From an uncultured Anaerolineales bacterium (GTDB lineage: Bacteria > Chloroflexota > Anaerolineae > B4-G1): DNA of 54,659 bases. This document shows, piece after piece, positions 1 to 26,821 of this stretch. The first letter of the stretch is position 1. The number at the start of each line of letters is the position of its first letter. The position numbers were made by a program, and so were the translations under genes. A model generated the notes under the pieces. The model worked only from the letters and a program-made list of their open reading frames with translations. It was not told the origin of the DNA and did not search any database. Location of the stretch: the NCBI GenBank assembly GCA_964444825.1, contig CAYUIS010000004.1, positions 482 to 55,140 on the forward strand. Direction: 5' to 3'.

Positions 1-1194
1 GAGGTCGGTGGGCTCCAGCTCGATCATCAGTGTGTAGGTCGTGTCGCCTTGTTGCACTACGGCGACCGGCGAGATCGTGACCACGCGCCCGTGGAGCGTC
101 TCGTCCCGAAAGGCATTCACGCGCACGCGGGCCTCCTGGCCCACCCGCACGCGGGCGATCTGCAACTCGCCCACGTTCTTGGTCTCGATGCGCCAGCGAG
201 ATACATCGAGCATCTCCACAACCGTTGCACCAGGCGCGGCCCACTCGCCCAAGCTGACCGGCACGGCCGAGACCACGCCGTCAAAGGGGGCCTCTAGGAT
301 CGCGCACTCCAGGTCTGCTTGGGCTGCCGCCAGCGCCAGTTCCGCCGCCTCTACCTCCACTGTCGCTGCCTCTATCTCTTTCTGCGCGGTCTGCACGTCT
401 AGCGGGTCCGCTCCCTCCAGCAGCAGCTCCAGACCGTCCTGGGCCTCCTGGTACGAGTGCTCCGCCTGCTCCACCGCGTTCCGTGCATCCTGCAACTGCG
501 CGTTCCCCTGCTGCCGGATCCGCTCCAGGTTCAGCTTTGTATCATCCAGCCGCTTCTGCGCCTGGTCCACGAACCAATAGTCCGGTTCCTCCCCCGATTC
601 GTACATCTCCAGCCGCGCCTCATACTTGTGCTGGACGTCCTCGTACACCCTCTCGGCGTCCTCCAGCGTCTCGTTCAGCAGCGTGCTGTTGAGCACCGCT
701 GCGATGTCGAACTGGGCGGCTTTCAGCGCGGCGCCAGCCTGGTCCACGGCGTGCTCCGCCTGCCGGATGTCCGTCTCGTCCGGGGGCTCCTGGAGTTGTC
801 TCAGCTTTAACTCTACTTGGCTGAGGCCGACCTGGGCTCGGTGGAGGTCGAGTTCTGCCTGGCCTATCGCCTGCTCCAGATCGGTCGTGTCCAGGCGGGC
901 CAGCGTCTGCCCGGCTCGCACGCCCCCGCCAATCTCGACTGCGACCATCTCAATGAAGCCTCCTACACCAAAGCTCAGTCTAACCTGCTGAGCGGGCAGC
1001 AGCACGCCGTTGGCGGTGATGCTACCAGAGGTCGATCCGGACATTGGATCGTTGTGGTCAGGCGCGCTGGTAGGTACAGGTGTGCTGATCCCATCTTTTC
1101 CACAGCCTGCCAGACAGAGACAAAAGACCAGCCCTCCCATCAGCAGCAGCTTTCCTATATTCCCACTTCCTTTGAACAAGATTCCTAGTCTCAT
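1..1194 (-). CDS. HlyD/efflux membrane-fusion (periplasmic adaptor) lipoprotein; 3' end runs off the window
   Basis: Not in the ORF track because it is truncated. Hand translation from the ATG at 1194 (RBS GGGAGA) gives MRLGILF...VFCLCLAGC (lipobox), ITANGVLLPAQQVRLSFGVGG...GQTLARLDT (lipoyl half), a long coiled coil, and ...GRVVTISPVAVVQQGDTTYTLMIELEPTDL (beta-barrel). Confidence 0.85.
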   Translation of the reverse strand, partial: MRLGILFKGSGNIGKLLLMGGLVFCLCLAGCGKDGISTPVPTSAPDHNDPMSGSTSGSITANGVLLPAQQVRLSFGVGGFIEMVAVEIGGGVRAGQTLARLDTTDLEQAIGQAELDLHRAQVGLSQVELKLRQLQEPPDETDIRQAEHAVDQAGAALKAAQFDIAAVLNSTLLNETLEDAERVYEDVQHKYEARLEMYESGEEPDYWFVDQAQKRLDDTKLNLERIRQQGNAQLQDARNAVEQAEHSYQEAQDGLELLLEGADPLDVQTAQKEIEAATVEVEAAELALAAAQADLECAILEAPFDGVVSAVPVSLGEWAAPGATVVEMLDVSRWRIETKNVGELQIARVRVGQEARVRVNAFRDETLHGRVVTISPVAVVQQGDTTYTLMIELEPTDL

Positions 1195-1200
1195 GTATTA

Positions 1201-1304
1201 TCTCCCGTTTTGCCTCTATGATACCAGTCGGGGCTGGGATTTTCCATAGGCACACGTCACGCTGTGCTTGTTATCGCCATCACATCCTACCGTGACACTG
1301 TCAT
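1201..1304 (-). promoter_or_regulatory. Promoter/operator element, copy 1 (upstream of the membrane-fusion gene)
   Basis: Ungapped 75/104 match (hand count) to 16782-16885. -10-like TATCAT at 1223-1218 and near-palindrome GTGACACTGTCAT at 1292-1304. Confidence 0.7.
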
Positions 1305-1311: not shown

Positions 1312-3657
1312 TCATCTTCTCTCGATAACTGCCACGGGGTCCAGCCTGTGCAGCATCCGCGCGATGGTGCCGGCGCTGGCCAGAGCGACGGCCAGCGGCA
1401 CGGGCGTCGTCAACAGCCAGGGAGTAAGGTTGAAAAAGTCCAGGGGCAGGCCGCGAGGTGCGTAGACGAGATTCTGCATGCCGACCAGCCCGACTCCACA
1501 TATCACAGCGCCAGCAAACCAGGCTATGCTGACTATACTACCGGTCTCTGCCATCGTGCGCAGCACGAGCCACCGGCGGCTGCGCCCCATGGCGTTCAGG
1601 ACGCCAAACTCCTCTCGACGCTGGGTGAAAAAGATGTGGTTCAACGTGGCCAGGGCCACCGCGGCCACGGCAGCAATCATACATTCAAGCAGGGCAAAAG
1701 TGACGGCGAGAGACGTCGTCGCTTCCCTGTACTCGCGCTCTTCCAGATTGTAGATGATGACGCGAGCTCGTGCCGGGTCCACGCTCTCCTCCAACCATCG
1801 ATCCAGCGCTGGCTTTTGCCCCTGGCGCGGGATGATCAGCAAGTGTGGGTTTCGAGATGAGGTGAGTTCGTGGCTGCGCAGATACTCGTAAGAAGCAAAT
1901 CCCACCCACGGGCGGTCGGGGGAGAGGATTCCTGTGATGATCATCTCGGTGGGGAGGTTGTCGGTAATGAGCGCATCGCCGGTGTCGGTATTCCCTCCTA
2001 TTACGTCGCCCACGTGTAGGTCACGGTTGGTGGCGATGGCCGCCGACAGCACGATCTCGTTGGTGCGAGGTCGAGGTAGGTGGCCTTTTTGCACCTGTAC
2101 GTCGAACAAGTCCAGGAGAATAGGTAGATCGGTTTCGGAAACGCCATAGATTCTGACGTCGATCCCGCCGCCTGGAGGGATGATCATCTGCATGCCAAGC
2201 GGAATGGCCGGGATGATCTGTTCCACCGCTTGGTGGCTCCCGACTTGGCCCACGACGCCGGGATCGAGCTCAACTTGGGATGAAGCGACTACGCTGACGT
2301 GTTGCAGATAGTCCAGGTATGGCAGCATAGCATCTGTCATGGCCGACAGCAGAAACACCGGAAAGGTGATGCCCACTATCATGAGCGCGGTGCTGAGGAT
2401 CATCAGCACCGCGCGCCGCCGGTGGCGCTGGTAAAAGGTGAGGGATGATAGCGGCTTGACCGACGAGCCTTTCACTGCCCGGTGTCCTTTTGGCTCTTCG
2501 CTCAGTTTGCCCTGCTCGACGATGGCAACGGCGTCCAACCGGGCAAAGATGCGCCTGATATTCATAAACGTCAGGGCGATGGTGATCAGGGGGATGGGTA
2601 GCACAAAGCAGAAAGGTGCCAGGTTGAGCAGATTCAGTTCCATGCCCAGGTTGTAGAAAAGGCTGTTCTTGAGCCATCCCATAGCCGCGAGAGCGATCCC
2701 CAACCCAACCAGGTATCCGAACCCGGCCATGGCTGACGTCTCCAGAGTCAGGCGGCGGGTCAGATGCTTTTTCGTGCGCCCCAGGGCGTGCAGCAGGCCG
2801 AATTCGCTCAGTCGCCTGGCCAGGGCGATCCGGTTGATGACGCCGATGACAAAGGCTACGGCGACGGCCACTATGCTGTTGACGGCGCCGAAAATGACGT
2901 ATACTGCGACGTGTGCCATCTTCAAGAACTCCATAAGCATGGCGAACGTCTCCACCTCGGTGTATTTGGATCTGACCGCCGTTTCCAAAAAGTCGTCCAC
3001 GGCGGCTTTGCGTCCTCCCTTGGCAATGACGAGTAGGCTGGTCGCGCGGGGGGCGTACAGCTCGTGGCCGTCTAGATACTCGGCTGAGACAAAGCCCAGA
3101 CGCACGCTTGGTCCTGGACTAGCCTGTGGATCGCCTTCCAGGATACCTACCAGCACCAGAGGCGCGGAAACGAGCTCATAGTAATCCTGGTCGATCGCGC
3201 GCCCGATCTCGCTGCCAAGCTCCAGGTTCAACACGCGGGCGATCTCTTCAGAGAGCACAATCTCGTTGGTGCGCGGCTCGAACATGCGCCCTTCTTTTAG
3301 CCGTGCGCTGCAGTGTTGCATGATGTACTCTGCGTCTTCCGGTGAGACGCCCAACAACCGTTGCGAATCTGTCCCGAGCAGGGAGGGCAAGGTAATCCCT
3401 AGCCCGTTGTCTGGAATCGCGCGCGCTACGTCCGGGTGGGTCTGGATTTGCGAGACTATGGCCGGATCGAGCGCAGTTCTGGCGGGAACCACTCGGCTGA
3501 GCCTGGTCAAGTAGCTGACGTTGGCGCGCAAGGGGATGGTATCGAGCACAGCGACGAGGACAAACAACCCTACCGTGGCCAGGCTGATGAGGGCGATCTG
3601 CAGCAGTGCGCTCCGCTTGTGGCGACGGTAGTAGGTGAAAGGTGATAATGGATTCAT
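1312..3657 (-). CDS. FtsX/MacB-like ABC transporter permease, double-unit, paralog 6
   Basis: 781 aa with two homologous halves (TM - large extracytoplasmic domain with GRxxxPRTNEI - EFGxLxAxG + 3 TM - LDxVxxxE). Confidence 0.9.
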   Translation of the reverse strand: MNPLSPFTYYRRHKRSALLQIALISLATVGLFVLVAVLDTIPLRANVSYLTRLSRVVPARTALDPAIVSQIQTHPDVARAIPDNGLGITLPSLLGTDSQRLLGVSPEDAEYIMQHCSARLKEGRMFEPRTNEIVLSEEIARVLNLELGSEIGRAIDQDYYELVSAPLVLVGILEGDPQASPGPSVRLGFVSAEYLDGHELYAPRATSLLVIAKGGRKAAVDDFLETAVRSKYTEVETFAMLMEFLKMAHVAVYVIFGAVNSIVAVAVAFVIGVINRIALARRLSEFGLLHALGRTKKHLTRRLTLETSAMAGFGYLVGLGIALAAMGWLKNSLFYNLGMELNLLNLAPFCFVLPIPLITIALTFMNIRRIFARLDAVAIVEQGKLSEEPKGHRAVKGSSVKPLSSLTFYQRHRRRAVLMILSTALMIVGITFPVFLLSAMTDAMLPYLDYLQHVSVVASSQVELDPGVVGQVGSHQAVEQIIPAIPLGMQMIIPPGGGIDVRIYGVSETDLPILLDLFDVQVQKGHLPRPRTNEIVLSAAIATNRDLHVGDVIGGNTDTGDALITDNLPTEMIITGILSPDRPWVGFASYEYLRSHELTSSRNPHLLIIPRQGQKPALDRWLEESVDPARARVIIYNLEEREYREATTSLAVTFALLECMIAAVAAVALATLNHIFFTQRREEFGVLNAMGRSRRWLVLRTMAETGSIVSIAWFAGAVICGVGLVGMQNLVYAPRGLPLDFFNLTPWLLTTPVPLAVALASAGTIARMLHRLDPVAVIERR

Positions 3658-3659
3658 CT

Positions 3660-6068
3660 CTATTTCCTCTCGATAATGGACACGGGATCAAGTTTGGACA
3701 GCGTCCGGGCGATCGTGCCAGTGCTGGCGGCCACGACGGCCAGCGGGATGGGGAACGTGAACAGCCACGGTCTGATGTTGAGTAAATCCAGTCTGCTGCC
3801 CATGCCCACACAGACGTTGCTTTGGTAGAACAGGAAAGCCACACAGAGAGCAGCTCCCACCAACCAGGCCACACTTACAACGCCCACGCTCTCGCGCAGG
3901 GTGCGCGTGAGCAACCGGGTGCGGCTGTGGCCTACTGCGTATAGAATCCCAAACTCGTCTCGGCGTTGTGTAAAAAAGATCGTGTTCAGGATGGACAGCC
4001 CAATGATGGCGACGGTGACGATAAAGGCCTCAGTGAGAACCATAATCTGCAGTCCGTCTCGCTCGCCCTCCCGATGGGTCTGATAGTTTTTACGGAAGGT
4101 CGTTACAGATACACGCGGGGAGGCGATGCTTTCCTCCAGCCACGCTTCCACCTCGGGTTCGCGTCCCTCAACCGGTAGGACCAGCGCGTGCGTGGGCACA
4201 GCGGCGTAGCGTTCGTGAGCCTCCACGTACTCGTACGAAGCGAATCCGGCCCATTGAGAGGCAGGGGGGATGTCGTATCCCTCTCGTTCCGCAAGTGCGG
4301 GTTTGTCCGACTTGAGCAGGCCTACGACGCGCATCTCTGTGGGCATACCGTCCCGCTCGTTGACTGGCTTGCCGACCGCATCGCCCACGCCGAGCCTGCG
4401 GTTGTGGGCCAGCCCGCTGGTCAGGATGACCTGGTTGGACTGTGGTTGGGTCAACTCCCCGGCGCTCAGGCACAGGTCATACGCATCCAAAAGGATCTGC
4501 AGATCCCCTTCGCGCACGGCGTAAATGGTCATCGGCAGCTCGCCCAGCGTGGGAATATCGACCACCATGCTCAGGGGTTTGACGGGGACCACGTGGGCGA
4601 CGTCTGGATGGACCCTGATCTGGGCGAGAACGTCGGCGCCCACGGCGCGATACATATTACCCGGCGAGACAATGCTTGCCTGGCCTGTGTAACTGAGGAT
4701 GTATGGCATCATTGCATCGGTGGACGTACTGATGACGAATGCCGGCAGGGCCACGCTAAAAACCATCAACCCAACCGCCACGACCAGCATAAGACCCCGG
4801 CGGCGGTGGCGTAGATAGAACAGCCGTGACGACAGAGGGCTAGATGACGAATTCCCTACCTCTTGCTGTTTGTCCTTTGCCTCTTCCATACTGAGCTTGC
4901 CGCGTTCGATGATAGTCACAGGGTCCAGGCGCTTGAGCAGGTGGTTGACGCTCACATTGACCCAAACGATGACAAGGAGCGGGGTTGGAAGCGTGAACAG
5001 GAGCGGTGTAAGGTCTGCCAGGTCGATGGCCGACCCTCTGACCGCGAAAAAGGTGGAATTGAGCAGTGCGGAAAACGTGTATCCTCCCAGTAGCCCCATT
5101 CCCCACCCGGCACAGGCAATCGCGGCGATCTCGATCGCCAGGCGACGAACGAGGCGGCGTTTCTCATACCCCACGGCGTGGAGCAGGCCGAATTCGGATA
5201 ATCGGTGCGTGACTGCAATTCGATTGATCATCCCTACGACCAACGCGGCTGCCGCGGCCACGAGGACGTCCGCAAAGCCGTACATAACATTGAAGGAGTG
5301 TTGGAACGTCTGCATCGCTTGCGTCTCGCCTTCGTACGTTTCCAGAAGCACGGACGTTGATTCACCGCTCTTTTCGATGATGCTGAGTGCAAAGTCGTTC
5401 ACAGCCGTCCTGCTCCCCTGGCGGGGGATGACGAGTAAGTTGGACAAGCGCGGCTGGTATAACTCGTGACTGTCGAGGTATTCGTACGATACAAAGCCTG
5501 CCCGAACCTCTGGCCCGGCGGCTGAGGGAACGCTCTCCAAAATGCCTACCAGCGTCAACTCTGTCAAGATGGTCGGGTAGTGATCCTCGTCGGTCTCGTG
5601 GCTGACGGAATCACCGATCTGCAGGCCCAGTGTGCGGACGAGCTGTTCGGAGAGGATGATCTCGGCTGCCCGTGGCTCGACCAAGCGGCCCGTTTTCAGC
5701 CGTAGGTCACAGGCGTCGATCACCACCGGCAAGTTGGCCTCGGTCACGCCCAGTATTGGGAACTCGGAGACCCCGATCACTGCCGGAGCGTTGGCCTGCA
5801 GGCCGTTTTCGGAAAAGACATAGTCGACGCCCTCGTGCGCTCGAATCTGATTGGCGATAGCCGCGATAGTCGAGTCCGACGTCCCGCCGAACGATAACCG
5901 GCTCATCCTGGTCAGGTAACGAACAGAATGGTAGTAAGTCTCCCCTATGACGTTCGTCAGGCTATACATCATATGAACGCCTAGCGTCAACGCGGCGATC
6001 AGTCCCACCAACAGCAGCGCCCGGCGCTTGTGGCGGCGATAGTAGGTGAAAGGCGAGAGTGGATTCAT
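3660..6068 (-). CDS. FtsX/MacB-like ABC transporter permease, paralog 5
   Basis: Start moved to the MNPLSP ATG at 6068 by paralog comparison; same double-FtsX architecture. Confidence 0.9.
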   Translation of the reverse strand: MNPLSPFTYYRRHKRRALLLVGLIAALTLGVHMMYSLTNVIGETYYHSVRYLTRMSRLSFGGTSDSTIAAIANQIRAHEGVDYVFSENGLQANAPAVIGVSEFPILGVTEANLPVVIDACDLRLKTGRLVEPRAAEIILSEQLVRTLGLQIGDSVSHETDEDHYPTILTELTLVGILESVPSAAGPEVRAGFVSYEYLDSHELYQPRLSNLLVIPRQGSRTAVNDFALSIIEKSGESTSVLLETYEGETQAMQTFQHSFNVMYGFADVLVAAAAALVVGMINRIAVTHRLSEFGLLHAVGYEKRRLVRRLAIEIAAIACAGWGMGLLGGYTFSALLNSTFFAVRGSAIDLADLTPLLFTLPTPLLVIVWVNVSVNHLLKRLDPVTIIERGKLSMEEAKDKQQEVGNSSSSPLSSRLFYLRHRRRGLMLVVAVGLMVFSVALPAFVISTSTDAMMPYILSYTGQASIVSPGNMYRAVGADVLAQIRVHPDVAHVVPVKPLSMVVDIPTLGELPMTIYAVREGDLQILLDAYDLCLSAGELTQPQSNQVILTSGLAHNRRLGVGDAVGKPVNERDGMPTEMRVVGLLKSDKPALAEREGYDIPPASQWAGFASYEYVEAHERYAAVPTHALVLPVEGREPEVEAWLEESIASPRVSVTTFRKNYQTHREGERDGLQIMVLTEAFIVTVAIIGLSILNTIFFTQRRDEFGILYAVGHSRTRLLTRTLRESVGVVSVAWLVGAALCVAFLFYQSNVCVGMGSRLDLLNIRPWLFTFPIPLAVVAASTGTIARTLSKLDPVSIIERK

Positions 6069-6075
6069 TCCGTGC

Positions 6076-8475
6076 TTATCTCCTCTCAATGATCGCCACC
6101 GGGTCGAGTCGTGAGAGCGCCCAGGCCACGGCGCCGGCGCTGACCACGAACACCGCCACGGGTATCGGCAGTGTGAACAACCAAGGGGTGAGATTAAAAA
6201 AGTTGAGCCTCATGCCGGCCGGGGCGTATAGGCCATATTGCAGGTAGGCCAGGATGATGGCGCATCCGAGCAGCCCGAACAGCCAGGCCACGCCGGTGGT
6301 AAAGAGGTTCTCGCGCGCAACGCGCCACACCAATTGCAGCCGGCCAAAACCCAGCGCGTTCAACACGCCAAACTCGGCCTGCCGCTGCGTGACAAAGATA
6401 TAGTTGAGACCTGCCAGGGCCAGGGCCGCCACCAGGGCAATGATGCTTTGCATCAGCGAAAAGGTAAACAACGCGGTGTTCATCGCTTCCTGAAACCAGG
6501 TCTGCTGCTTGCCATAGGTGAGCACGAAACGCCGCTCTCGGGCGATTTGACTCTCCAGCCAGGCGTCGAGGGCCGCCTTTTGCCCGGCCTTGGGCACGAC
6601 GATGAGGGAGAGATCGGTTCTCCAGTCACTCTGGTAGCTGTCGATGAACTCTATAGACATAAAGCTCAACCAGACGTCCTCGGCTGGATCCTCGGCTCGG
6701 GCAAAGATGCCCGAAACCACCAGCTCGGAGGGCAGTGTGGGTGCGTTTGGGTAGATGGGAAAGTCCCGATTGCCGATCACGTCGCCCACCTGGAGGTCCC
6801 GGTTTTTGGCGGCGGTCCAGGGAATGACGATTTCGTTGGTGTTGGGGCGCGGCAGGCGGCCTTCATCTAGCGCCAGACTGTAGAGCTCTATCAGGTAAGC
6901 CATATCCTCCGCCGTGACGCCATAGGTCTCGAGGGGCGAGTCGTCCCGTATGAGCGGCGTGGCGAGTCCCAGAGGTGAAACGATGGCGACGGGAATCGCC
7001 CGCTCCACCGCCGGGTGGGCGCGGATCTGGGCCATCTCCGCCGCCTCCAGCGGCAGGCCCTTGGGAGAGACCCTGCTCGTCCGATTCAGGTTGGCGAGCA
7101 CCGGCAGCGCACCATCCCAGACGGATCCGATGACAAAGACGAGTCCCGCTGTGCCCACAATCATCAGGGCCATCGCACCGATGAGCGTCGCTGCCCGGCG
7201 CGAATGCCGCTGGTAAAAGGTCGCCGTTGCCAGCGGGCGGGGCAGCGTCTTGGCCCGGACGCGGTCTGTCCGGCCGGATCGCGGGCGACCAGACCGCGCC
7301 TCTTCCAGGCTCAACTCGCCCCGCTCGACGATCGTCACGGCGTCCAAACGACTCAGGGCGCGGATGGCGGTGAGAAGCGTAAAGCCAATCACCACCAGTG
7401 GCATGGGCGCTACAAACAGGAGCGCCGTTATCTGAAGCGGGTTGAAAGCAAAGCCTTGGGGCGCGTAGACGGCCGCGCTCAGGGCGGCCATTCCGCCCCA
7501 CGACGCCAGGATGCCCAACACCCAGCCGGCGAGTGCCAGCCCGGCCGTTTCCAGCGTCAGGCGGCGCGCCAACCAGCCTTTGCTCCGGCCAACGGCGTGC
7601 AGGGTGCCGAACTCGGGCAGTCGCCGCATGAAGGCAAGCTGATTGATCGCGCCGATGACCAGCGTGACGGCTGTCGTCACCAGCAGCATGATCGGGGAAA
7701 GAAGCGCATACAGGGTCGCCTGAGACCTCACCGCGGCTTGTTCCACGAGCTTGTGTGTATAGACATCGGTTCGGGAGCTGCGAATGGTCTGCCGGAGAAA
7801 GTCATCCACCGCCGCCTCACGGCCTGGGCGGGCGATGACCAAGAGGCCGTAGCGGGCCAGGTCGCGATAGCGTTCGTGGCTATCCAGATATTCGTACGAA
7901 ATAACCCCCAGCCGGACGTCGCCGGAGAGAATGCCCACCACCTGCAAGGGGCTGACGATATTGGCGTAATGGGCAAAGAATGCGTCCTCGTCGTCTTGTG
8001 TCTCGTCGAATGTATCGCCGATTTCCAGGTCCAGCGCCGTGGCGATTGCCTGAGAGAGCGCGACGCCGTTGGTGCGCGGCCGCGGCAGTTCGCCTTCGAC
8101 AAGGGTGACGCCGCTCTGGGCCAGCACCGTGCCCACGTCCGCTTCCCGCAGGCCGAGCAGGCGAAAGTAAAAGCCGAGGCCCCCCACGTTTGGCACGGCG
8201 ATCTCAACGTTGTTTTGCGGCAGCACCTGAGCCACGTCCGGGTGCGCGCGAATCTGGGCGGCGACAGCCGGGTCCGGCGGTAATCCCATATCCGGCTGCA
8301 CCAGGCTGAAATTGCTCAGATAGCGGTTAATGGTATAGTCGGGCGTGACAAAGGATTCCTGAAACAGGCCGGCGAGCAGGTAAAGGCCCATGACCGCCAG
8401 GGCCAACAAAACGATCAGCATCAATGTCTGGCCTTTGTGGCGGCGGTAGTAGGTGAAGGGTGAGAGTGGGTTCAT
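6076..8475 (-). CDS. FtsX/MacB-like ABC transporter permease, paralog 4
   Basis: 799 aa; MNPLSPFTYYRRHK start, two EFGxLxAxG motifs, LDPVAIIERR end. Confidence 0.9.
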   Translation of the reverse strand: MNPLSPFTYYRRHKGQTLMLIVLLALAVMGLYLLAGLFQESFVTPDYTINRYLSNFSLVQPDMGLPPDPAVAAQIRAHPDVAQVLPQNNVEIAVPNVGGLGFYFRLLGLREADVGTVLAQSGVTLVEGELPRPRTNGVALSQAIATALDLEIGDTFDETQDDEDAFFAHYANIVSPLQVVGILSGDVRLGVISYEYLDSHERYRDLARYGLLVIARPGREAAVDDFLRQTIRSSRTDVYTHKLVEQAAVRSQATLYALLSPIMLLVTTAVTLVIGAINQLAFMRRLPEFGTLHAVGRSKGWLARRLTLETAGLALAGWVLGILASWGGMAALSAAVYAPQGFAFNPLQITALLFVAPMPLVVIGFTLLTAIRALSRLDAVTIVERGELSLEEARSGRPRSGRTDRVRAKTLPRPLATATFYQRHSRRAATLIGAMALMIVGTAGLVFVIGSVWDGALPVLANLNRTSRVSPKGLPLEAAEMAQIRAHPAVERAIPVAIVSPLGLATPLIRDDSPLETYGVTAEDMAYLIELYSLALDEGRLPRPNTNEIVIPWTAAKNRDLQVGDVIGNRDFPIYPNAPTLPSELVVSGIFARAEDPAEDVWLSFMSIEFIDSYQSDWRTDLSLIVVPKAGQKAALDAWLESQIARERRFVLTYGKQQTWFQEAMNTALFTFSLMQSIIALVAALALAGLNYIFVTQRQAEFGVLNALGFGRLQLVWRVARENLFTTGVAWLFGLLGCAIILAYLQYGLYAPAGMRLNFFNLTPWLFTLPIPVAVFVVSAGAVAWALSRLDPVAIIERR

Positions 8476-8481
8476 TTCGAA

Positions 8482-10887
8482 CTATCGCCTCTCGATCACG
8501 GCCACCGGGTCGAGCCGCGAGAGCGCCCAGCCCACTGTGCCCACACTGACGGCGACGACGACCAAGGGGATGGGCAGTGTGAACAGCCACGGCATGGGAT
8601 TGGAAAAGTCCATGCTCATACCTACTGGCGAGAGGATGTCGGCCTGGATCCAGAACACACCGATCATACAAAGGATGGCTCCTATCAGCCAGGCCACGCC
8701 TACGACGCTCACACTCTCTTGCAGGGTGCGTGTGGTGAGCCTCAGGCGGCTGTGGCCTACTGCGTGCAATGTCCCGAACTCGTCCCGGCGCTGCGAGAAA
8801 AAGATCGTGTTCAAAGTGATCAGCGCAATGGCCGCGACCGCAGCTAAGATGACCTCGGTGATGGCAAGGAACAGCAAGTAGCCTTGCCCTGTTCTTTGCC
8901 ATTCTCGATAGCTCGTGCCGAGGGTCGTCACGTTCACGCGCGGGGAGTCGATGCTCTCCTCCAACCACGCCTCCATCTCGGATTCACGTCCCTCGACAGG
9001 GATGATGAGGGCGTGGGTAGGCACAACGGCATAGCGCTCGTGATCCTCCACGAATTCGTACGAGGCGAACCCTACCCATCGAGGTGTGGGGGGCAAGTTA
9101 TATCCCTCTCGTTCTGCCAGCGCAGGGCCGGTTGACTCCAACAGACCGACAACGACCATCTCTGTAGGGAACCCATCCCGCTCACACACCGGCTCACCGA
9201 CCACATCGCCCACGTTCACGCCCCGGTTCTGGGCAAGGGTGTGGGTCAAGATGAGCTGGTTGGATCGCGGTTGAATTAGATTTCCTTCATCGAGATACAA
9301 GCCATACACGTCCAGCAGCAGGTGCAGATCCTGCTCGCGTACTGCGTAGACAGGCGTCTGCCATTCTATCCCCGGAGGAATGGTGATCTTGATGCCCAAA
9401 GCCCTGACGGGAATCACGTGCGCGACTGCCGGATTGGCCTTGATCTGGGCGAGTACGGTGGGATCCACGGTGCGCTGGGAGCCGCTTGGCGAGACCACAC
9501 CGGCCTGGCTCGAGTAGCTGAGGGCAAGAGGTGCCACTGCATCATTCATCATGTTGAGAATGAATGCGGGAAAGGCCACGCCCGAGACCATCAGCCCGGT
9601 TGCCATGATCAACATGAGCCCCCGGCGGCGATGGCGTGCGTAGAACGTCAGCGCTGAGAGCGGCTTGGACGGCACCTTTCTCACTTTTCTTTTGGGCTGA
9701 TCCTCCTCCCCGCCCAGTTTGCCGCGTTCGATGATGGCGATGGCGTCTAGGCGATTCAAGAGCCGGTTCACGCTCACATAAACCCAGACGACGACGACGA
9801 GCGGGATAGGGAGTGTGAGCAGGAATGGAATCGGGTTTGCCACGTTCATGACCCACCCGTGGGCTGCCCAGTAGGTGTTCTTGAGCAGAATCAAGGAAAC
9901 GTGTGCACCAACCAGGCCAACGCCCCATCCTACGCAGGCGGTGGTGGTGACCTCGAGCACCAAGCGCCGAACCAAGCCCCACTTCTGATAGCCCACTGCC
10001 TGAAGCAGGCCGAACTCGGGCAATCGCTGCGTAATCGCGATCCGGTTGATCATCCCCACGACTAATGCGATGGCCACGGTCACAAGGACATCCACAGAGC
10101 CATAGATCGCAACCTGGACAGGCCGCAGATGCTGGATATGCTCGCTCGCGCGCTCGAACGTCTCCAGGCGCACGGACGTCGCTCCGCCGTTCTCTTGAAC
10201 CAGTGGTTCCAGGTAATCGTTAACGCTTTTCCGGCTCCCTTCACCGGGAATGATGAGCAACCCAGGCAGGCGTGGCTGGTACAACTCGTGACTGTCGAGG
10301 TACTCGTAGGGTACAAAACCTACTCGGACCTGCGGCTCTGCATCAGGAATGCTCTCCAGAATGCCCACCAGCGTCAGTTCTGTCATAATGCCTGGGTAGG
10401 CACTCTCATCGATCTCGTAGCTGACCGGGTCGCCAATCCGCAGATCCAGCGCGCGGGCGAGTTCCTCCGAGAGAATGATCTCACCTGCACGTGGATCGGT
10501 CAGGCGACCATCTTTCAACCGCAGATCGCAGGCTGTCATCACCAGGGGCAGGTCCACTTCGGTGACTCCAAGGAGGGGAAAGGGGGAAGGACCACCTGGC
10601 TGTGGGACGATAACACTCAGGCCGTTCTCGGGGATGGTATGGTCGATATCTGGGTGTGGTCGAATCCCTCCCGCGATAGCTGCGACACTTGAACCCGTCT
10701 CTCCGGTAGCCGATATGCGGCTCATTCTGGTCAGATAGTGGTGCGGGTAGTAGGCGTTTTCTATGCCGGTATTCAGTATGTGCGCCATCGAATAGAGGCC
10801 TAGCGTCAACGAGGCGACCAACCCTATCAGCAGCAGCGCAGCACGCTTGTGGCGGCGATAGTAGGTCACGGGCGACAAGGGATTCAT
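8482..10887 (-). CDS. FtsX/MacB-like ABC transporter permease, paralog 3
   Basis: 801 aa; same motifs and architecture as the other paralogs. Confidence 0.9.
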   Translation of the reverse strand: MNPLSPVTYYRRHKRAALLLIGLVASLTLGLYSMAHILNTGIENAYYPHHYLTRMSRISATGETGSSVAAIAGGIRPHPDIDHTIPENGLSVIVPQPGGPSPFPLLGVTEVDLPLVMTACDLRLKDGRLTDPRAGEIILSEELARALDLRIGDPVSYEIDESAYPGIMTELTLVGILESIPDAEPQVRVGFVPYEYLDSHELYQPRLPGLLIIPGEGSRKSVNDYLEPLVQENGGATSVRLETFERASEHIQHLRPVQVAIYGSVDVLVTVAIALVVGMINRIAITQRLPEFGLLQAVGYQKWGLVRRLVLEVTTTACVGWGVGLVGAHVSLILLKNTYWAAHGWVMNVANPIPFLLTLPIPLVVVVWVYVSVNRLLNRLDAIAIIERGKLGGEEDQPKRKVRKVPSKPLSALTFYARHRRRGLMLIMATGLMVSGVAFPAFILNMMNDAVAPLALSYSSQAGVVSPSGSQRTVDPTVLAQIKANPAVAHVIPVRALGIKITIPPGIEWQTPVYAVREQDLHLLLDVYGLYLDEGNLIQPRSNQLILTHTLAQNRGVNVGDVVGEPVCERDGFPTEMVVVGLLESTGPALAEREGYNLPPTPRWVGFASYEFVEDHERYAVVPTHALIIPVEGRESEMEAWLEESIDSPRVNVTTLGTSYREWQRTGQGYLLFLAITEVILAAVAAIALITLNTIFFSQRRDEFGTLHAVGHSRLRLTTRTLQESVSVVGVAWLIGAILCMIGVFWIQADILSPVGMSMDFSNPMPWLFTLPIPLVVVAVSVGTVGWALSRLDPVAVIERR

Positions 10888-10889
10888 CG

Positions 10890-13253
10890 TTACCTCCTCT
10901 CAATCACCGCCACCGGATCGAGCCTGGACAGCGTCCACACGACGGTCCCCGCGCCGGCAACGACGACGGCCAGCGGGATGGGCAGCGTGAACATCCAGGG
11001 CACCAGGTTGAACAAGTCCAAGTTCAGCCCTCGCGGCGCGTAGACGAGCGCCTGGAAACCGATCAAGCCAAGAAGACACATCACTGCACCGACCAACCAG
11101 GCCAGGCCAACCACGCTCCCGGTCTCCTTGACGGTACGAAAGACGAGCCACGGCTGGCTGCGCCCGATGGCGTGCAGGACGCCAAACTCTTCCCGGCGCT
11201 GTGCGAAAAAGATATGGTTCAGGGCCGCCAGAGCAATCGCCGCGACCACGGCAATCAGTCCCTCGACCAAGGCACACAGCACGAACAGACTACGCGTAAC
11301 CATCTGGAATTCGCGCTGCTTTGCACTGTAGGTGGTCACATTCGTCTGCGCCGAGGCTACGTTCTCCTCCAGCCAGGTATCTAGCTCAGTTCCGCGCCCT
11401 TCGGCCGGGACGACGAGTAGCCCGGTTCCTCGAAACGCGGTGAGTTCGTGGCTCTCCAGATATTCCAGAGAAGCGAACCCCAACCACACGTCATCGCGAG
11501 AGAGCAAGCCCACGATCATCATTTCGATCGGAATGCCATCCGAGATCAGGGGATTCTCCTCGCCGTTTCTTTCCAGGACAGGTTGGCCGACCGAGTCTCC
11601 CACTCTCAAGCCCCGGTTCATCGCCGCGGCTTGCGATATGACGATCTCGTTTGATCGCGCGCGAGGCATACGTCCTTCCACAAGCTGTTCCCCAAGCGTG
11701 TCCATCAGCACCGGCAGATCGGCCTCAGAGACGCCATAGATATTGACCGAACCTCCTCCTCCGGGCGGCGCGAGGACCTGCAACCACATTGAGATCGTGG
11801 GAATGACGCGCTCGACGACGGTATGCCCCCTGATCTGTGCGGCCACGCCGGGATCAACAAAATCCCCTACAGCGGGTGAAACCCTGCCAAAGTAGCGCAG
11901 ATGTTCATAACCAGGCCTCAGCGCATCCACCGAAGCCGTAAGAATAAAGACGGGAAGGGCAACCCCAAGGATCATCAACGCCATACTCAGGACCAGTATG
12001 ATGCCCCGGCGGCGATGACGCAGATAAAAGGTCAGGGAAGATAGCGGCCTGGTTGATGAGCGCACCGCTTGCTTGTGGTCTTGTGGCTCCACACTGAGCT
12101 TGCCCCGCTCGATGATGGCCACCGCGTCTAATTGGCGGAATATCCGCCGGGTGCTGATGTTCGCAAAGGCGATCACAACCAGGGGAATCGGGAGAACGAA
12201 CCAGATCGGCATCCTATTCCCCAGGTCCAGTTCCATTCCCTTGGCATAGTAAAAACTGGTCTTGAGACCAAACAGAATCAGCAGTGCAAGCCCCAGACCA
12301 GTCCCCCATCCCATCGCGGTCACCACTGCCGTCTCCAGCGTCAGCCGGCCGACGAGGCGATTCTTCTGATACCCCACGGCGTGCAGCAGGCCCATCTGTT
12401 CCACCCGCTGGAGCAGCGCGATCCGGTTGATCACGCCGACGACCAGCGCGACGACGACGGCAACCAGGCAGTTCACGACGCCAAACATGCCATAAAGCAG
12501 TTGGCGGGCCATCTCCACAAACCGGTATTCTTCTCGAAAGGTATTCGTCTCGGTGCGAGCGGATTCGACCTCCGTCTCCAGGAACGCTTCCACCACCTCG
12601 TTGCGCCCCTCCCGCGCGACGACCAGCAAGCCCGGCGCGTTTGACGCGAACAACTCGTGAGTCTTTAGATACTCGTAGGAGGCAAAGCCCACCCGCACAC
12701 TTGGGCCTGGATTGACCGCCGGATCGCCCTCCAGAATCCCGACCAACCTGAGCGAGGCCGGAACAGCTGCATAGTACAGATCGTCGACTGAGCGTTCGAT
12801 CTCGTCGCCAAGGTCCAGTCCCAGCGCGCGGACGACCTCCTCCGAGATCACAATCTCGTTGGTGTGCGGTTCAAGCATCCGCCCTTCTTTCAAGCGCACG
12901 CCGCAGTGAGACATCAAGTACCGGGCATCCTCCTGAGACACCCCCATCAGGCGCAAGGGCTCCGTCCCGATCAACGTCGGCCGCGCGATGGACAGGCCGC
13001 TATCCCGGATCACGCGCGCCACGTCTGGGTGGGTCTCGATCTGCGCCACGATGCCTGGCTCCAGCCCGTCCCCGCTGGTGGGGTAGACCCGACTGACCTT
13101 GGTCAGGTAGATGAACTGAGCACGCATTGGGACCGAGTCCAGTACGGCAACCATCACATAAACCCCTATCGTCGCCAGGCAGACGAGGGCCATCAGAAGC
13201 AACGCGCTCCGCTTGTGGCGGCGATAGTAGGTCATGGGCGACAATGGATTCAC
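10890..13253 (-). CDS. FtsX/MacB-like ABC transporter permease, paralog 2
   Basis: 787 aa; GTG start; same motifs as the other paralogs. Confidence 0.9.
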   Translation of the reverse strand: MNPLSPMTYYRRHKRSALLLMALVCLATIGVYVMVAVLDSVPMRAQFIYLTKVSRVYPTSGDGLEPGIVAQIETHPDVARVIRDSGLSIARPTLIGTEPLRLMGVSQEDARYLMSHCGVRLKEGRMLEPHTNEIVISEEVVRALGLDLGDEIERSVDDLYYAAVPASLRLVGILEGDPAVNPGPSVRVGFASYEYLKTHELFASNAPGLLVVAREGRNEVVEAFLETEVESARTETNTFREEYRFVEMARQLLYGMFGVVNCLVAVVVALVVGVINRIALLQRVEQMGLLHAVGYQKNRLVGRLTLETAVVTAMGWGTGLGLALLILFGLKTSFYYAKGMELDLGNRMPIWFVLPIPLVVIAFANISTRRIFRQLDAVAIIERGKLSVEPQDHKQAVRSSTRPLSSLTFYLRHRRRGIILVLSMALMILGVALPVFILTASVDALRPGYEHLRYFGRVSPAVGDFVDPGVAAQIRGHTVVERVIPTISMWLQVLAPPGGGGSVNIYGVSEADLPVLMDTLGEQLVEGRMPRARSNEIVISQAAAMNRGLRVGDSVGQPVLERNGEENPLISDGIPIEMMIVGLLSRDDVWLGFASLEYLESHELTAFRGTGLLVVPAEGRGTELDTWLEENVASAQTNVTTYSAKQREFQMVTRSLFVLCALVEGLIAVVAAIALAALNHIFFAQRREEFGVLHAIGRSQPWLVFRTVKETGSVVGLAWLVGAVMCLLGLIGFQALVYAPRGLNLDLFNLVPWMFTLPIPLAVVVAGAGTVVWTLSRLDPVAVIERR

Positions 13254-13257
13254 CTTT

Positions 13258-15684
13258 TCATCTCCTCTCGATGATAGTTACCGGATCCAGTTTCGACAGT
13301 GTCCGGGCGATCGTGCCGGTACCAGCAATGACGACGGCTATCGGAACCGGAAACGTCAACACCCACGGTGTGAGGTTGAAAAAGTTCAGGCTCAATCCCT
13401 TGGGCGCAAAGACGAGGACCTGGAAGCAGATCAGACCAATACAGCAGATCACGGCGCCCGCCAGCCAGGCTATGGTAATCACGCTGCCTGTTTCCTTCAT
13501 CGTGCGCAGGACGAGCCACAAGCGGCTGCGTCCCACGGCGTGCAGGATACCGAATTCCTCCTGCCGCTGCGTAAAGAAAATATAGTTCAAGGTAGCCATC
13601 GCAATTGCCGCGACGATGGCCGTGACGCACCCAACCACGGCAAAGTTCAGGATCAGAACTTGCGCGATCTGTCGATGCTCGCGGTACTCGACGTCATAGG
13701 TCGTCACGCCTGTTTGGGCAGATGCCACGATTCCCTCCAGCCAGGCGTCGAGTTCATCCTTGCGTCCATCAGCCGGGACGACGAGCTGGTGCACTAGCCG
13801 GGATGAAGTAAGCTCGTGGCCCTCCAGGTACTCGAAAGACGCAAGTCCCAACCACATCGCGCCAGAGGAGAGAGTCTGTCCCGAACGCGAAAGTTCCGCT
13901 CGTGGCTGAAGGGACCTGTCCTGAGCTTGTCGAAGGATGCCGACCACCACCATCTCGACCGGGATATCGTCCATGTCCAGTAACTCGAACTCTCCCCTTT
14001 CATAGGCCGGCACACCGATCCTGTCGCCGACGCGCAACCCGCGATTCAGCGCCACCGGTTCTGACAGGACGATCTCGTTGGAGCGAGGACGGGGCAGACG
14101 GCCTTCCTTGACGTCCATCCCAAACAGATCCACCAGAATTGGTAGATCCCCTTCAAGGGCACCATAGATGCTGGTTCTCATTAGGCTGCTCGGTGGTACG
14201 TCGACTTGCAGCCCCAGGGACATCACGGGAATCACGCGCTCGACGGCCTGGTGGCTTCTGATCTGCCCTATCACGCTGGCGTCGACGGTGCGCCCGTTGC
14301 TCGGCGCGACCTTGCTCACATAGCGCAGGTATTCCAGGTCGGGCATCATCGCGTCGGTCACCGCTGAAAAGAGGAACACGGGGAGGGCAACCCCCACGAT
14401 CACCAGTGCCGCGCTCACCACCAGCACGATTCCCCGGCGGCGATGGCGCAGGTAAAAGGTCCAGGAAGATAACGGCCTACCCGACGATTGCTTTGCTCCT
14501 CGCCTATGGCTTCCCTCTTCCGTGCTGAGTTTCCCCCGCTCCACGATCGCCACAGCATCAAACCGGGCAAACAGACGCCGCAGGCTAAGAACCGCCAGAG
14601 CGACCACTATCAACGGAATAGGAATGACAAACCAGAGTGGCACCGGGTTCGCCAGATCAAGCGCCATGCCCCTGGCATAGTAGAGATTTGCCTTCATCCA
14701 GGAGAGGATCAGCAACGCAAGTATCAGGCCCGCGATCCACCCCAGGCCCGCCACGCCAGCCGTCTCCAACGTCAGACGGCGGATCAGCCTATTTCTATGG
14801 TGGCCCAGAGCGTTCAGCAGGCCAAGCTCTGAGACCCGCCGCATCAGGGCAATCTGATTGATCACTCCGACGACCACCGCGACCGCGACCGCCACCAGGC
14901 AGTTCACGATGCCAAAGGTGAGATAGAGGAACCGGCGAGCCTGCGCGGCTATCTCGACGACATCCCTGTAGGTCTCTACCGCCGTGCGTGCAGAAGCGAT
15001 CGTTGTTTCCAGGAATTCGTCCACCGCTTCCTTGCGGCCCTGTCGCGCGACGACGAGCGCACTGTCTATCCGAGGCGCATACAACTCGTGCCCCTCCAGG
15101 TACTCGTATGAGACAAACCCCACGCGAACGCCTGGCTCTTCACCCATCTCAAGGTCAGCCTCCAGGATGCCCACCAATACCAGCGGCTCTAGAACACCCT
15201 CGTAGTAACTATCATTGACCGAGCGACCAATCCGGTCATCGATCTCCAGTCCCAGCGCGCGGGCGGTCTCTTCCGAAAGTATAAACTCGTTCGTGCGCGG
15301 TTCGAGCAAGCGCCCCTCTTTCAGGCGCACACCACAGCGCGCCATCAGATACTCTACGTCGCCTTGAGAAGCGCCTATCAGGTGCAAGGCTTCGATGCCA
15401 CCGAGCGTCGGCACAGCAATCAGCATGCCATTGTCTGATATCACACGCGCCACGTCTGGATGCGCCTGTATCTGCGATACGACGCCTGGCTCAAGCGCGT
15501 GGCCGGTGTCAGGGCGAACCCGGCTGAGCCGGCTCAGGTAGCTAAAGTCAAGCTGCATCGTGAGAGAGTCTAGTACGCCGACGATGGCATAGAGGACCAT
15601 TGTCGCCAGCATAACAAGAGCTATTAACAGCACCGCACTCCGCTTGTGGCGGCGGTAGTAGGTTAACGGTGATAGCGGGTTCAT
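13258..15684 (-). CDS. FtsX/MacB-like ABC transporter permease, paralog 1
   Basis: 808 aa; RBS AGGAGGT; same motifs; carries a ~21-aa insertion that looks repeat-derived. Confidence 0.9.
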   Translation of the reverse strand: MNPLSPLTYYRRHKRSAVLLIALVMLATMVLYAIVGVLDSLTMQLDFSYLSRLSRVRPDTGHALEPGVVSQIQAHPDVARVISDNGMLIAVPTLGGIEALHLIGASQGDVEYLMARCGVRLKEGRLLEPRTNEFILSEETARALGLEIDDRIGRSVNDSYYEGVLEPLVLVGILEADLEMGEEPGVRVGFVSYEYLEGHELYAPRIDSALVVARQGRKEAVDEFLETTIASARTAVETYRDVVEIAAQARRFLYLTFGIVNCLVAVAVAVVVGVINQIALMRRVSELGLLNALGHHRNRLIRRLTLETAGVAGLGWIAGLILALLILSWMKANLYYARGMALDLANPVPLWFVIPIPLIVVALAVLSLRRLFARFDAVAIVERGKLSTEEGSHRRGAKQSSGRPLSSWTFYLRHRRRGIVLVVSAALVIVGVALPVFLFSAVTDAMMPDLEYLRYVSKVAPSNGRTVDASVIGQIRSHQAVERVIPVMSLGLQVDVPPSSLMRTSIYGALEGDLPILVDLFGMDVKEGRLPRPRSNEIVLSEPVALNRGLRVGDRIGVPAYERGEFELLDMDDIPVEMVVVGILRQAQDRSLQPRAELSRSGQTLSSGAMWLGLASFEYLEGHELTSSRLVHQLVVPADGRKDELDAWLEGIVASAQTGVTTYDVEYREHRQIAQVLILNFAVVGCVTAIVAAIAMATLNYIFFTQRQEEFGILHAVGRSRLWLVLRTMKETGSVITIAWLAGAVICCIGLICFQVLVFAPKGLSLNFFNLTPWVLTFPVPIAVVIAGTGTIARTLSKLDPVTIIERR
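13915..13936. repeat. Short palindromic repeat (CCTGTCCTGAGCTTGTCGAAGG) inside a permease CDS
   Basis: Resembles the CCTGAGCnnGTCGAAGG ('LRQAQ/FDKL') type of interspersed repeat and lies in a segment absent from the closest paralogs. Confidence 0.55.
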
Positions 15685-15781
15685 CGGAACCTCCTAACCC
15701 GGGTCAACCGGAATCCCAAGCCTGCGGCCCTGCTCCTGAAATCCCCGCACGAGGGGCAAGGATCGCAGGGGGTAGGCACGG

Positions 15782-16471
15782 TCATGTCGAGTTGGTGGCC
15801 ACGCGCGCCAGCCGATCCTCGACCTTGATGACCTGTCCATCGCGCATCCTGACGACCAAGTCGGCCTCGGTCAGAATCTCTGGGTTGTGCGTCACGGCGA
15901 TCAGGCTGCCCTGGTCGCGGTAGCTGCGCAGGAGGGCCATCACCTGCAAGCCGGTGCGCCGGTCCAGCAACCCCGTCGGCTCGTCGGCAAAGATGATGCG
16001 CGGGCGGTGGATCATGGCGCGCGCGATGGCCACCCGCTGCCGCTCACCGCCGGAAAGCTCGTAGGGGAAGCGGTGCAGCTTGTCGCCCATTCCCAGATCG
16101 GCCAGCAATGCCTTGGCCTGCTCGGCGTGGGCCGTATCCTGCACCGGTGCGGAGACCATCACGTTCTCCAACGCGGTCAGGTAGTTGATCAGAAAGTGCT
16201 GTTGGAAGACAAAGCCGTACTCGCTACGTCGCAAAGCCACCCGCTCCCGGTCAGACATCTTGCCGTAGGCCCGGCCGTCGAGGTAAACCTCGCCTTCCGT
16301 CACCTTGCGCAGCCCGCTCAGGAGATATAGCAGCGAGCTCTTGCCGGAGCCCGAGGGCCCCAGGATGCCGATAAACTGGTGATCCTCGACAGAGATCGAG
16401 ACGTCGTCCACGGCGTCTATCGTTCTATCACCATCTTGGTACGTTAACGTGAGATTCTCTCCCTGTAACAT
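15782..16471 (-). CDS. ABC transporter ATP-binding protein (LolD/MacB-NBD type)
   Basis: Walker A GPSGSGKS, signature LSGGERQR, Walker [11 protein letters not shown]-loop VTHN. Start set at ATG 16471 after RBS AAGGAGG. Confidence 0.95.
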
Positions 16472-16486
16472 GAATTCCTCCTTAAT

Positions 16487-16545
16487 TGTGGGGTAGGTTT
16501 CCAGCCTACCGCTACCTGTTGGCGGCTGTGGAAAGCCGCCCTGCA
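16487..16545. repeat. Pair of inverted REP-like hairpin units
   Basis: TGTGGGGTAGGTTTCCAGCCTACC (16487-16510, +) and TGCAGGGCGGCTTTCCACAGCCGCC (16545-16521, -). Each is a hairpin around a TTTCC/GGAAA core, and they face each other. Confidence 0.6.
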
Positions 16546-16547
16546 TT

Positions 16548-16724
16548 CTATCTCCTCTCGATTGTGGACACGGGATCGAGCTTGGACAATGTCTCGTTGA
16601 ATATCGCCCAGGTCAATGCACCCATCAGGTAGAGTCCAGCCGTCACCAGGCTGATCAAACTCAGCATCAGAACGGCCTGTCGTTTGTGACGACGGCAGAA
16701 TGTCCAGAGCGATAAGGGGTTCAT
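16548..16724 (-). pseudogene. 58-aa mini-permease: N-terminal helix fused in frame to the C-terminal tail of a permease paralog (deletion remnant or small protein)
   Basis: MNPLSLWTFCRRHKRQAVLM...AIFNE-TLSKLDPVSTIERR. Both ends match the six paralogs, and it has its own RBS (CAGGAG). Confidence 0.75.
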
Positions 16725-16781
16725 ACGATCAACTCCTGCATCTTGCGGCTCACACGACCTTTCTGCACTATGCTCTCCAAT

Positions 16782-16885
16782 TCTCCCGTTTTGCTCCCAT
16801 AATACTCGATTCAGGTCGGATTTTCCATAGGCGCACGTCATGTCGCGCTTGTTACCGCAGTCACTTTGACATATGACACTGTCAT
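16782..16885 (-). promoter_or_regulatory. Promoter/operator element, copy 2 (upstream of the mini-gene/ATPase/permease operon)
   Basis: -10-like TATTAT at 16804-16799; perfect inverted repeat ATGACA-C-TGTCAT at 16873-16885; homologous to 1201-1304. Confidence 0.7.
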
Positions 16886-21947: not shown

Positions 21948-22002
21948 TCGAGTTTCCCCCCTGTATGAAATACCGCAATGATTATGTCCACTCACGTTCT
22001 TC

Positions 22003-22191
22003 CTATGCGTCCGTGTTCTGAAGAGCAGCCAGCGCGAGGGTGAACAAGCCTATCCCCAGCAGGGTGATGTGGACATCGACCGATGCGGTGTTCAGGACGC
22101 CCAGCACCACACTGGTGACGGACATTCCCAGTGCCACAGCCTTTAGCACCAGGTCGACGATTGAGCTAACGCTAGTCTTTTGGTTTTCCAT
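22003..22191 (-). CDS. Small two-TM membrane protein (62 aa)
   Basis: Strong RBS AGGAGGT; two hydrophobic helices; first gene of the exporter operon. Confidence 0.75.
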   Translation of the reverse strand: MENQKTSVSSIVDLVLKAVALGMSVTSVVLGVLNTASVDVHITLLGIGLFTLALAALQNTDA

Positions 22192-22224
22192 CCGAGTTGA
22201 CCTCCTATGTGTTGGACTTTAGTC

Positions 22225-26816: not shown

Positions 26817-26821
26817 CGGCG

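Follow-up and report, generated by a model that had tools for sequence, protein, structure and literature searches.

It has been reported that Psychroflexus torquis carries a 42-kb cluster in which ten paralogs of the acidobacterial duplicated orphan permeases (ADOP, TIGR03434) stand beside other transporter proteins, the cluster being abundantly translated and its role unknown, and that two Dyadobacter genomes hold 28 and 33 such genes (available parts of PMC3914696 and PMC11573002, respectively). Arrays of double-length permeases of the MacB type occur widely, and their products have been abundant wherever measured. The stretch described here (the window) comprises 54,659 nucleotides from the metagenome-assembled genome (MAG) of an uncultured Anaerolineales bacterium of the class Anaerolineae (4.95 Mb, 216 contigs, 86% complete), and it contains six intact double-length permease genes, P1 to P6, between one ATP-binding cassette (ABC) ATPase gene and one adaptor gene; coordinates are window positions unless a contig or another locus is named. 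The first-pass annotation of this DNA took one or two permeases to be the norm in type VII loci, which is too narrow in view of the ADOP clusters in print, as far as the available part of PMC3914696 describes them; similar arrays have already been published for other phyla, and the claim of rarity falls. What is new here is the series from one to six or seven copies, the invariant ATPase together with a decayed spare, the operator and its duplicate, and the ribosome-binding sites written into the last codons of the genes.

As far as the available sources describe ADOP, the window permeases share with them a length of about 800 amino acids (aa), two FtsX units, MacB-type extracytoplasmic domains, and clusters in which many diverged paralogs stand next to a few further transporter parts. 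Membership of that family was rejected, as the window permeases score 22.9–46.1 bits against a cut-off of 622.3, by partial matches with no consistent half-to-half register. ADOP are orphans by their family description. The window array, in contrast, belongs to Chloroflexota, has no outer membrane duct that could be found, and stands, in the loci mapped, always beside an ATPase and an adaptor.

YbbAP(-TesA) of E. coli (PDB 9GE6–9GE8) resembles the window unit in that one polypeptide comprises two MacB-type halves and two extracytoplasmic domains and is served by a separate ATPase. It has been reported that this complex has a 2:1 stoichiometry, in which two copies of the ATPase engage the fused permease, one at the coupling helix of each half (available part of PMC12646458). 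YbbP has 10 transmembrane (TM) helices with two linking helices, is encoded by a single gene, has TesA as its partner and has no adaptor, whereas the window permeases have 8 TM helices and a hydrophilic, disordered linker. A YbbP-like 10-TM topology was tried and rejected, since each window permease has eight hydrophobic segments and the model of P6 has eight long helices.

It has also been reported that in Gram-positive MacAB-like pumps the adaptor works without an outer membrane (available part of PMC5985334). Spr0693-0694-0695 of S. pneumoniae (PDB 5XU1) and YknXYZ of Bacillus resemble the window in that a separate ATPase, a permease of the MacB fold and an HlyD-type adaptor are combined in cells lacking an outer membrane, but their permease is a 4-TM homodimer with one gene per operon, whereas the unit of the window is fused and multiplied. 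MacAB-TolC has in common with the window the MacB fold, the architecture for mechanotransmission and an operon-encoded HlyD/RND_mfp adaptor; MacB differs in that its ATPase is fused to the permease and TolC is needed, whereas the window has a separate 229-aa ATPase gene and its genome gave no match to an outer membrane efflux protein (OEP).

MsiK and the group II ECF modules are examples in which one ATPase powers several membrane modules, as in the window, and MceG is described in the same way for Mce1–4 in the part of the literature available. These systems have different ABC folds, are importers or lipid importers and have dispersed permease genes, whereas the window holds one array that looks translationally coupled. 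BceAB-BceRS has a 10-TM permease with one large extracellular domain, a Bce-type kinase and an OmpR-type regulator; the window shares with it only the co-located two-component system and differs in having 8 TM helices, two domains, a HisKA_3 kinase and a LuxR/GerE regulator. In the literature, no description was found of such arrays or of their constant neighbouring genes in Anaerolineae, nor of multi-permease type VII loci with one ATPase.

The permease array and the age of its copies

The genes of the array, all on the minus strand, are the following.

1 to 1194, minus strand: HlyD-family periplasmic adaptor, 413 aa; start at 1194, stop about 45 bp beyond the first base of the window
1312 to 3657, minus strand: P1 permease, 781 aa, an 8-TM double FtsX/MacB unit; last before the adaptor
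3660 to 6068, minus strand: P2 permease, 802 aa from the ATG at 6068
6076 to 8475, minus strand: P3 permease, 799 aa
8482 to 10887, minus strand: P4 permease, 801 aa; FtsX and MacB_PCD above the Pfam cut-off
10890 to 13253, minus strand: P5 permease, 787 aa, GTG start; FtsX and MacB_PCD; orthologs at the first positions of loci L011 (73%) and L019
13258 to 15684, minus strand: P6 permease, 808 aa; first after the ATPase and the copy whose structure was modelled; orthologs at 84–85%
15782 to 16471, minus strand: ABC ATPase of the LolD/MacB type, 229 aa, ATG behind AAGGAGG; Pfam ABC_tran; the only one in the array
16548 to 16724, minus strand: collapsed permease remnant, 58 aa, read from the sequence, with a tblastn match to the permease N-terminus and a permease profile match

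Open reading frame (ORF) calling between 1312 and 15684 gave six intact permeases of 781–808 aa, separated from P1 to P6 by 2, 7, 6, 2 and 4 bp, in agreement with the 2–7 bp of the first-pass annotation (a TTG start listed for P2 at 6089 would overlap P3, and the ATG at 6068 was taken). The six proteins are mutually 40–58% identical. Each contains two stretches of Pfam FtsX (PF02687; 36.4–60.5 bits against a cut-off of 25.5), while MacB_PCD exceeds its cut-off only in P4 and P5, and, by hydropathy, eight segments of each protein are hydrophobic and two domains of about 220 aa each lie outside the cytoplasm. The internal duplication that had been proposed for every paralog is confirmed, every permease consisting of two FtsX/MacB units fused in tandem; residues 399–780 of P1, for example, align with the first half of P4 at 31% identity over 395 aa (E 1.6e-46). 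For P6 an AlphaFold2 model was built with 62 family members (pLDDT 82.7, pTM 0.76); it shows eight long helices, a mixed alpha/beta domain at about residues 48–238 and another at about 455–662, and a hydrophilic, disordered linker at 386–401 with pLDDT below 50. In Foldseek searches the whole length of P6 matched YbbP best (9ge6_A; E 7e-18, TM-score 0.61, 12% identity), its halves matched MacB, LolE, Spr0695 and HrtB, and its extracytoplasmic domains matched the periplasmic domains of MacB, LolE and YknZ. By their FtsX domain, their MacB-type extracytoplasmic domains and a putative partner ATPase of the LolD/MacB/FtsE clade, the permeases can be classed with the type VII (MacB/FtsX-fold) ABC systems.

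The array is real, and it continues past the edge of the window, where a seventh permease gene starts 2 bp from the adaptor stop (C4:431 in contig coordinates) and is truncated where the contig ends; contig C118 ends with a matching permease C-terminal half, followed by an unrelated gene. The operon thus holds six and probably seven permease copies. On the other side of the ATPase, the 58-aa remnant consists of an MNPLS...TM1 segment that continues in frame into the 14 C-terminal residues of a permease, with the tail ...LDPVSTIERR; position 16724, which had been taken as the far end of the array, is the start of this remnant and not of a full permease. No equivalent was found in the other related loci among ORFs of at least 45 aa at E < 1e-5. 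A 15-codon ORF (16722–16769, minus strand), with a GTG behind a GGGAGA box, precedes the remnant, and its TGA overlaps the ATG of the latter (ATGA).

The ATPase gene lies 97 bp upstream of P6. Its top NCBIfam matches are LolD, DevA, MacB, YbbA-like and FtsE, all under the equivalog cut-offs, and in the PDB its sequence matches 5xu1_A (E 6.7e-48, the best), LolD and MacB. That the array has a single ATPase, as first claimed, is borne out: the other ABC ATPase of the region (20092–21456) belongs to a separate ABC-2 system.

The adaptor gene follows downstream of P1 after a spacer of 117 bp. It matches Pfam HlyD_D23 and HlyD_3 and NCBIfam TIGR01730 RND_mfp (96.7 bits against a cut-off of 94.9), and its N-terminus has a lipoprotein signal with an LAGC lipobox and the only hydrophobic segment of the protein. 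An adaptor was found in every related locus that extends past the last permease. There were 0 matches to TolC/OEP (PF02321) and 0 to Omp85 (PF01103) in the window's own genome, while controls were positive in 7 of 14 reference genomes; at 86% completeness these absences are not proven. Since no TolC/OEP or Omp85 was found, the module resembles the Gram-positive MacAB-like pumps, whose adaptor works without an outer membrane.

In a FastTree phylogeny (local support only) of 62 full-length permeases, the six copies of the window fall into five deep clades with support of 99–100, each with orthologs in other MAGs. P1 groups with seven others (support 100), P5 with two (99) and P6 with two (100); P3 groups with one full-length copy each from L034, L035, L036 and L038 (100); and P2 and P4 lie together in one clade with the second permease of L023 and the fourth of L026 (100). 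Identity within clades is 0.66–0.86 along the whole protein, and 38 columns are invariant across the 62 sequences. Because gene order varies between genomes, the arrays are different selections from an old set.

The ratio of nonsynonymous to synonymous substitution (omega) was estimated at domain scale by the Nei-Gojobori method in 8 ortholog pairs with a synonymous divergence (dS) of 0.14–1.0. It was 0.16–0.36 in the extracytoplasmic domains, 0.11–0.38 in the membrane and cytoplasmic parts and 0.04–0.30 in the coupling regions, that is, 0.04–0.38 in all 8 pairs and all domain classes, so every copy is under purifying selection. Diversifying selection on the extracytoplasmic domains was therefore not seen at this scale. 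Among the paralogs of the window, the N-terminus (identity 0.88), the C-terminus (0.81), TM6 (0.61) and the coupling regions (0.53–0.57) are conserved, and the extracytoplasmic domains, at 0.40–0.42, are no less similar than TM1, TM3, TM5 and TM7 (0.32–0.44). The first-pass annotation was thus right about the conserved termini, but its selectively diverged extracellular domains, for which a per-domain comparison with the coupling regions had been proposed, were not found. Gene conversion or recombination behind the invariant termini was also considered and rejected: the first 15 codons differ between copies at synonymous sites, so the conservation is at the protein level.

Related loci and the constant ATPase

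Permeases, ATPases and adaptors were mapped in 34 related loci from species genomes, almost all of them labelled Anaerolineae or Chloroflexota. The gene order ATPase, n permeases, adaptor recurs, and the 13 loci with boundaries at both ends have n values of 1, 1, 1, 1, 2, 2, 2, 3, 3 (with 3 more upstream), 4, 4, 5 and 5; the six of the window between ATPase and adaptor form the largest bounded array among the loci mapped. At least two adjacent permease copies were found in 21 of the 34 loci. What remains constant around the varying permeases is a chassis of LuxR/HisKA_3 two-component system, palindromic operator, ATPase and adaptor, so this Anaerolineae family offers a natural series, in which the same ATPase, adaptor, regulator and operator come with one to six or seven permeases.

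The family is common among metagenome proteins, where 1015 of 7999 scored candidates matched at E <= 0.001 and the best 120 were all at least 56% identical. In genomes its occurrence is patchy: it was found in 6 of the 41 genomes nearest to that of the window (own included; E <= 1e-30) and in 11 of 401 sampled genomes of the class (own included; E <= 1e-100). As to the copy-number survey proposed for the paralogs, the layout of the array recurs with 1–5 permeases per bounded locus, whereas the 401-genome search, in which two candidates per genome were scored, gives prevalence and not copy number. One record titled as a Kiritimatiellae MAG (L024) has 72% identity to P1 and the full chassis; nearly all others are Anaerolineae or Chloroflexota, with one more labelled only 'bacterium', and the Kiritimatiellae label may reflect a binning error or a transfer.

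The ATPase of the window is 79.2–89.5% identical to its counterparts in all 21 other ATPase-bearing loci, whatever permease clades accompany them, whereas the permeases range from 37 to 85% identity. This constancy includes single-permease loci whose permease is about 41–43% identical to P6. Spare ATPases occur in two arrays. L024 has two, 89.7% identical to each other, and L026 has an ATPase pseudogene with an internal deletion and a frameshift (L026:12342-12745) between the second and third of its five permeases. The leader of this relic resembles the stretch of the window between the 58-aa remnant and the ATPase, and this likeness fits an ancestral array in which permeases flanked the ATPase, as they do in G021 (= L011/L018), whose three additional permeases are found on the upstream side, beyond a gap of 1.3 kb. 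These observations support, without proving, the idea that one ATPase may serve all copies, and with the relics of spare ATPases and of a collapsed permease that idea becomes testable with a small gene set.

Unrelated double-FtsX permeases occur elsewhere in the window's own genome as neighbouring pairs, with four FtsX domains in each pair and one or two ATPases alongside (C11:52229-55945, C32:381-4325, C47:17273-21918 and C6:53143-55089), so more than one fused permease per ATPase is common in this genome.

Regulation and apparent translational coupling

The regulatory elements and the genes divergent from the operon are the following.

16781 to 16885, minus strand: operon regulatory region with the 13-bp palindrome ATGACAGTGTCAT (16873–16885) and a predicted promoter TGGAAA-17-TATTAT (16827–16799)
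1199 to 1304, minus strand: second copy of the regulatory region, in the spacer before the adaptor, with the palindrome ATGACAGTGTCA (1293–1304) and a predicted promoter TGGAAA-17-TATCAT (1246–1218)
16976 to 17602, plus strand: response regulator with receiver and LuxR/GerE helix-turn-helix domains (Pfam), divergent from the operon
17658 to 18893, plus strand: histidine kinase, HisKA_3 and HATPase_c (Pfam), divergent from the operon

By alignment, the region of about 105 nt at 16781–16885 is repeated at 1199–1304 with about 75% identity, and the palindrome ATGACAGTGTCA(T) is present in both copies (3 matches, falling at 2 sites, were counted in the window where 0.21 would be expected). It was found upstream of the first gene of the operon in 13 of the 18 related loci with enough upstream DNA and also before the adaptor gene in L011 and L036. 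Its distance to a conserved TGGAAA box falls into two classes, about 31 and 52–53 nt, which are two helical turns apart, as would be expected of an activator site. In a flank scan that covered 44 of 86 candidate flank ORFs, those closest to the operons, orthologs of the regulator and/or the kinase lay divergently upstream in 11 of 12 loci, the exception being L011. The kinase has one N-terminal membrane anchor, its single hydrophobic segment, and no extracytoplasmic domain; its ortholog in L021 also matches GAF_3.

The codons for the invariant Glu-Arg-Arg at the end of the permeases (GAGAGGAGA; GAG AGG AGA) are at the same time the ribosome-binding site 8–12 nt before the next ATG. AGA or AGG was used for 10 of 11 of the two terminal Arg codons in the window and for 80 of 90 in the other loci, whereas elsewhere in the same genes these codons make up 13.4% (45/335 in the window; 397/2970 in the other loci). 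Because the last codons of each gene are the ribosome-binding site of the next and are biased in this way, the copies look translationally coupled, and the tight spacing together with the built-in sites suggests that all are co-produced rather than switched. This bears on the 'interchangeable cartridge' of the first-pass annotation, in which one ATPase would dock onto any of six permeases. That one ATPase and one adaptor would serve many alternative permeases is the part that finds indirect support, from the 79–90% constancy of the ATPase, the L026 relic, the range of one to six copies and the lack of a close ATPase paralog elsewhere in the 86%-complete assembly.

Proposed module, competing readings and neighbouring genes

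The locus is rather probably a two-component-regulated type VII (MacB-fold) ABC system of a bacterium without an outer membrane, whose permease is a single 8-TM fusion present in six to seven anciently diverged copies. From the comparison of sequences it is read, with moderate confidence, as a regulated module like MacAB/YknXYZ, with a single motor and a single adaptor shared among several alternative permeases. Two copies of the conserved ATPase would attach to the two coupling regions of any permease that they encounter, so that each permease would form with the ATPase pair a complete alternative transporter, and the single lipoprotein adaptor would serve them all. All copies would be transcribed from one regulated promoter, the second promoter copy would drive the adaptor and the seventh permease, and the divergent LuxR-type regulator would probably activate both through the palindrome. 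The different permeases would widen the range of the module.

Several observations weigh against this module. In G021 no palindrome was found in the 1.3-kb gap, and not every copy lies in one clear transcription unit; the palindrome is missing at <=2 mismatches in 5 of the 18 loci; and the scan for promoter-like sites gave 6 sites overall, against 4.9 in shuffled sequence, which is no more than chance would give. Other MacB-type ATPases, with identities of up to 42.5%, occur in the genome, which is 86% complete, and two of them, on contigs C136 and C167, lack any FtsX domain on the same contig and could in principle serve some permeases. As no sign of diversifying selection was seen on the outside, different specificities rest only on the 40–45% identity of the copies; docking, co-expression, activation by the regulator and substrates are inferred.

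It is improbable that some or all permeases use ATPases encoded elsewhere, which would make the 6:1 ratio merely apparent. The assembly holds about 20 other LolD/MacB-like ATPase genes, including the two on C136 and C167, and is incomplete; but the closest of them is only 42.5% identical to the ATPase of the array, against 79–90% for the orthologs in other MAGs, 14 of the 19 other hits examined have one to four FtsX domains within 16 kb, and the spare ATPase inside an array has decayed in L026. That a single copy works while most are redundant or in decay is decidedly improbable: remnants do occur, such as the 58-aa collapsed copy of the window and the split copies in L035 and L050, but all six genes are intact, each has orthologs at 70–85% in other genera, and the low omega of all 8 pairs and the 38 invariant columns tell against decay. 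An assembly artefact of the metagenome bin is scarcely credible. The MAG is built from short reads and its seventh copy is broken at a contig end; on the other side, copies of 40–58% protein identity are too dissimilar for collapse or chimera, similar arrays occur in the 21 related loci counted above, and a comparable array is also present in other MAGs, including one record titled 'chromosome'. The junctions P2/P3, P3/P4, P5/P6, P6/ATPase and ATPase/remnant are bridged with 0–2 mismatches by contigs of two other runs, both of which match the probable source in habitat and year and may belong to one campaign, so that they are weakly independent; for P1/P2 and P4/P5 there was no bridge among the pieces listed. 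The mis-assembly that the annotation named as its refutation is therefore unlikely.

Two further readings concern what the permeases do. They may be less exporters than mechanotransmission devices or co-sensors, each of which would pass the energy of ATP hydrolysis on to a partner outside the cytoplasm, for instance a hydrolase (cf. YbbAP-TesA, FtsEX-EnvC), or report its activity to the sensor-less kinase as BceAB does to BceS; by these analogies the reading is possible, though on balance unlikely. It is favoured by YbbP as the best whole-length fold match, by a kinase with one anchor and no extracytoplasmic domain that is syntenic in most loci, by alpha/beta-hydrolase genes that adjoin the module in 3 of the 16 loci scanned (L025:18686-19534, L035:1420-2196, L044:14172-14954), and by a putative acyl-CoA thioesterase in the Psychroflexus ADOP cluster (available part of PMC3914696), while no hydrolase gene lies beside the array of the window, an efflux-type adaptor is always present, and kinase and regulator are HisKA_3/LuxR and not of the Bce type. 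The hydrolase neighbours, the Psychroflexus thioesterase and YbbAP-TesA may together hint at a role in lipid extraction. A more speculative and rather unlikely reading is a cassette repertoire, in which at least five ancient permease lineages would be shuffled, gained and lost around an invariant chassis, each Anaerolineae lineage having its own set, and the kinase would read permease activity (flux sensing, as in Bce), so that the array would be sensor panel and effector at once.

Sequencing runs X4 and X8 also contain joints that skip between paralogs, with sides of 20–36 letters and 92% likeness, which were read as other organisms or repeats. In run X4 (estuary) one contig joins position 3657, the start of P1, to 16817 in the promoter region, skipping 13,159 bases, with a shorter side of 24 letters; this could represent a relative with a single P1-like copy, or noise.

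Beyond the regulator and kinase genes, a neighbouring regulated transporter module occupies 18983–24221, with the following genes.

18983 to 20095, minus strand: ABC-2 permease
20092 to 21456, minus strand: second ABC ATPase (Pfam), 454 aa, of the separate ABC-2 system
22285 to 23592, plus strand: HisKA_3 kinase
23589 to 24221, plus strand: LuxR regulator

It is followed at 24253–32893 by two aldehyde:ferredoxin oxidoreductase genes, two amidohydrolases and a dihydroorotate-dehydrogenase-like Fe-S protein, which are unrelated to the array.

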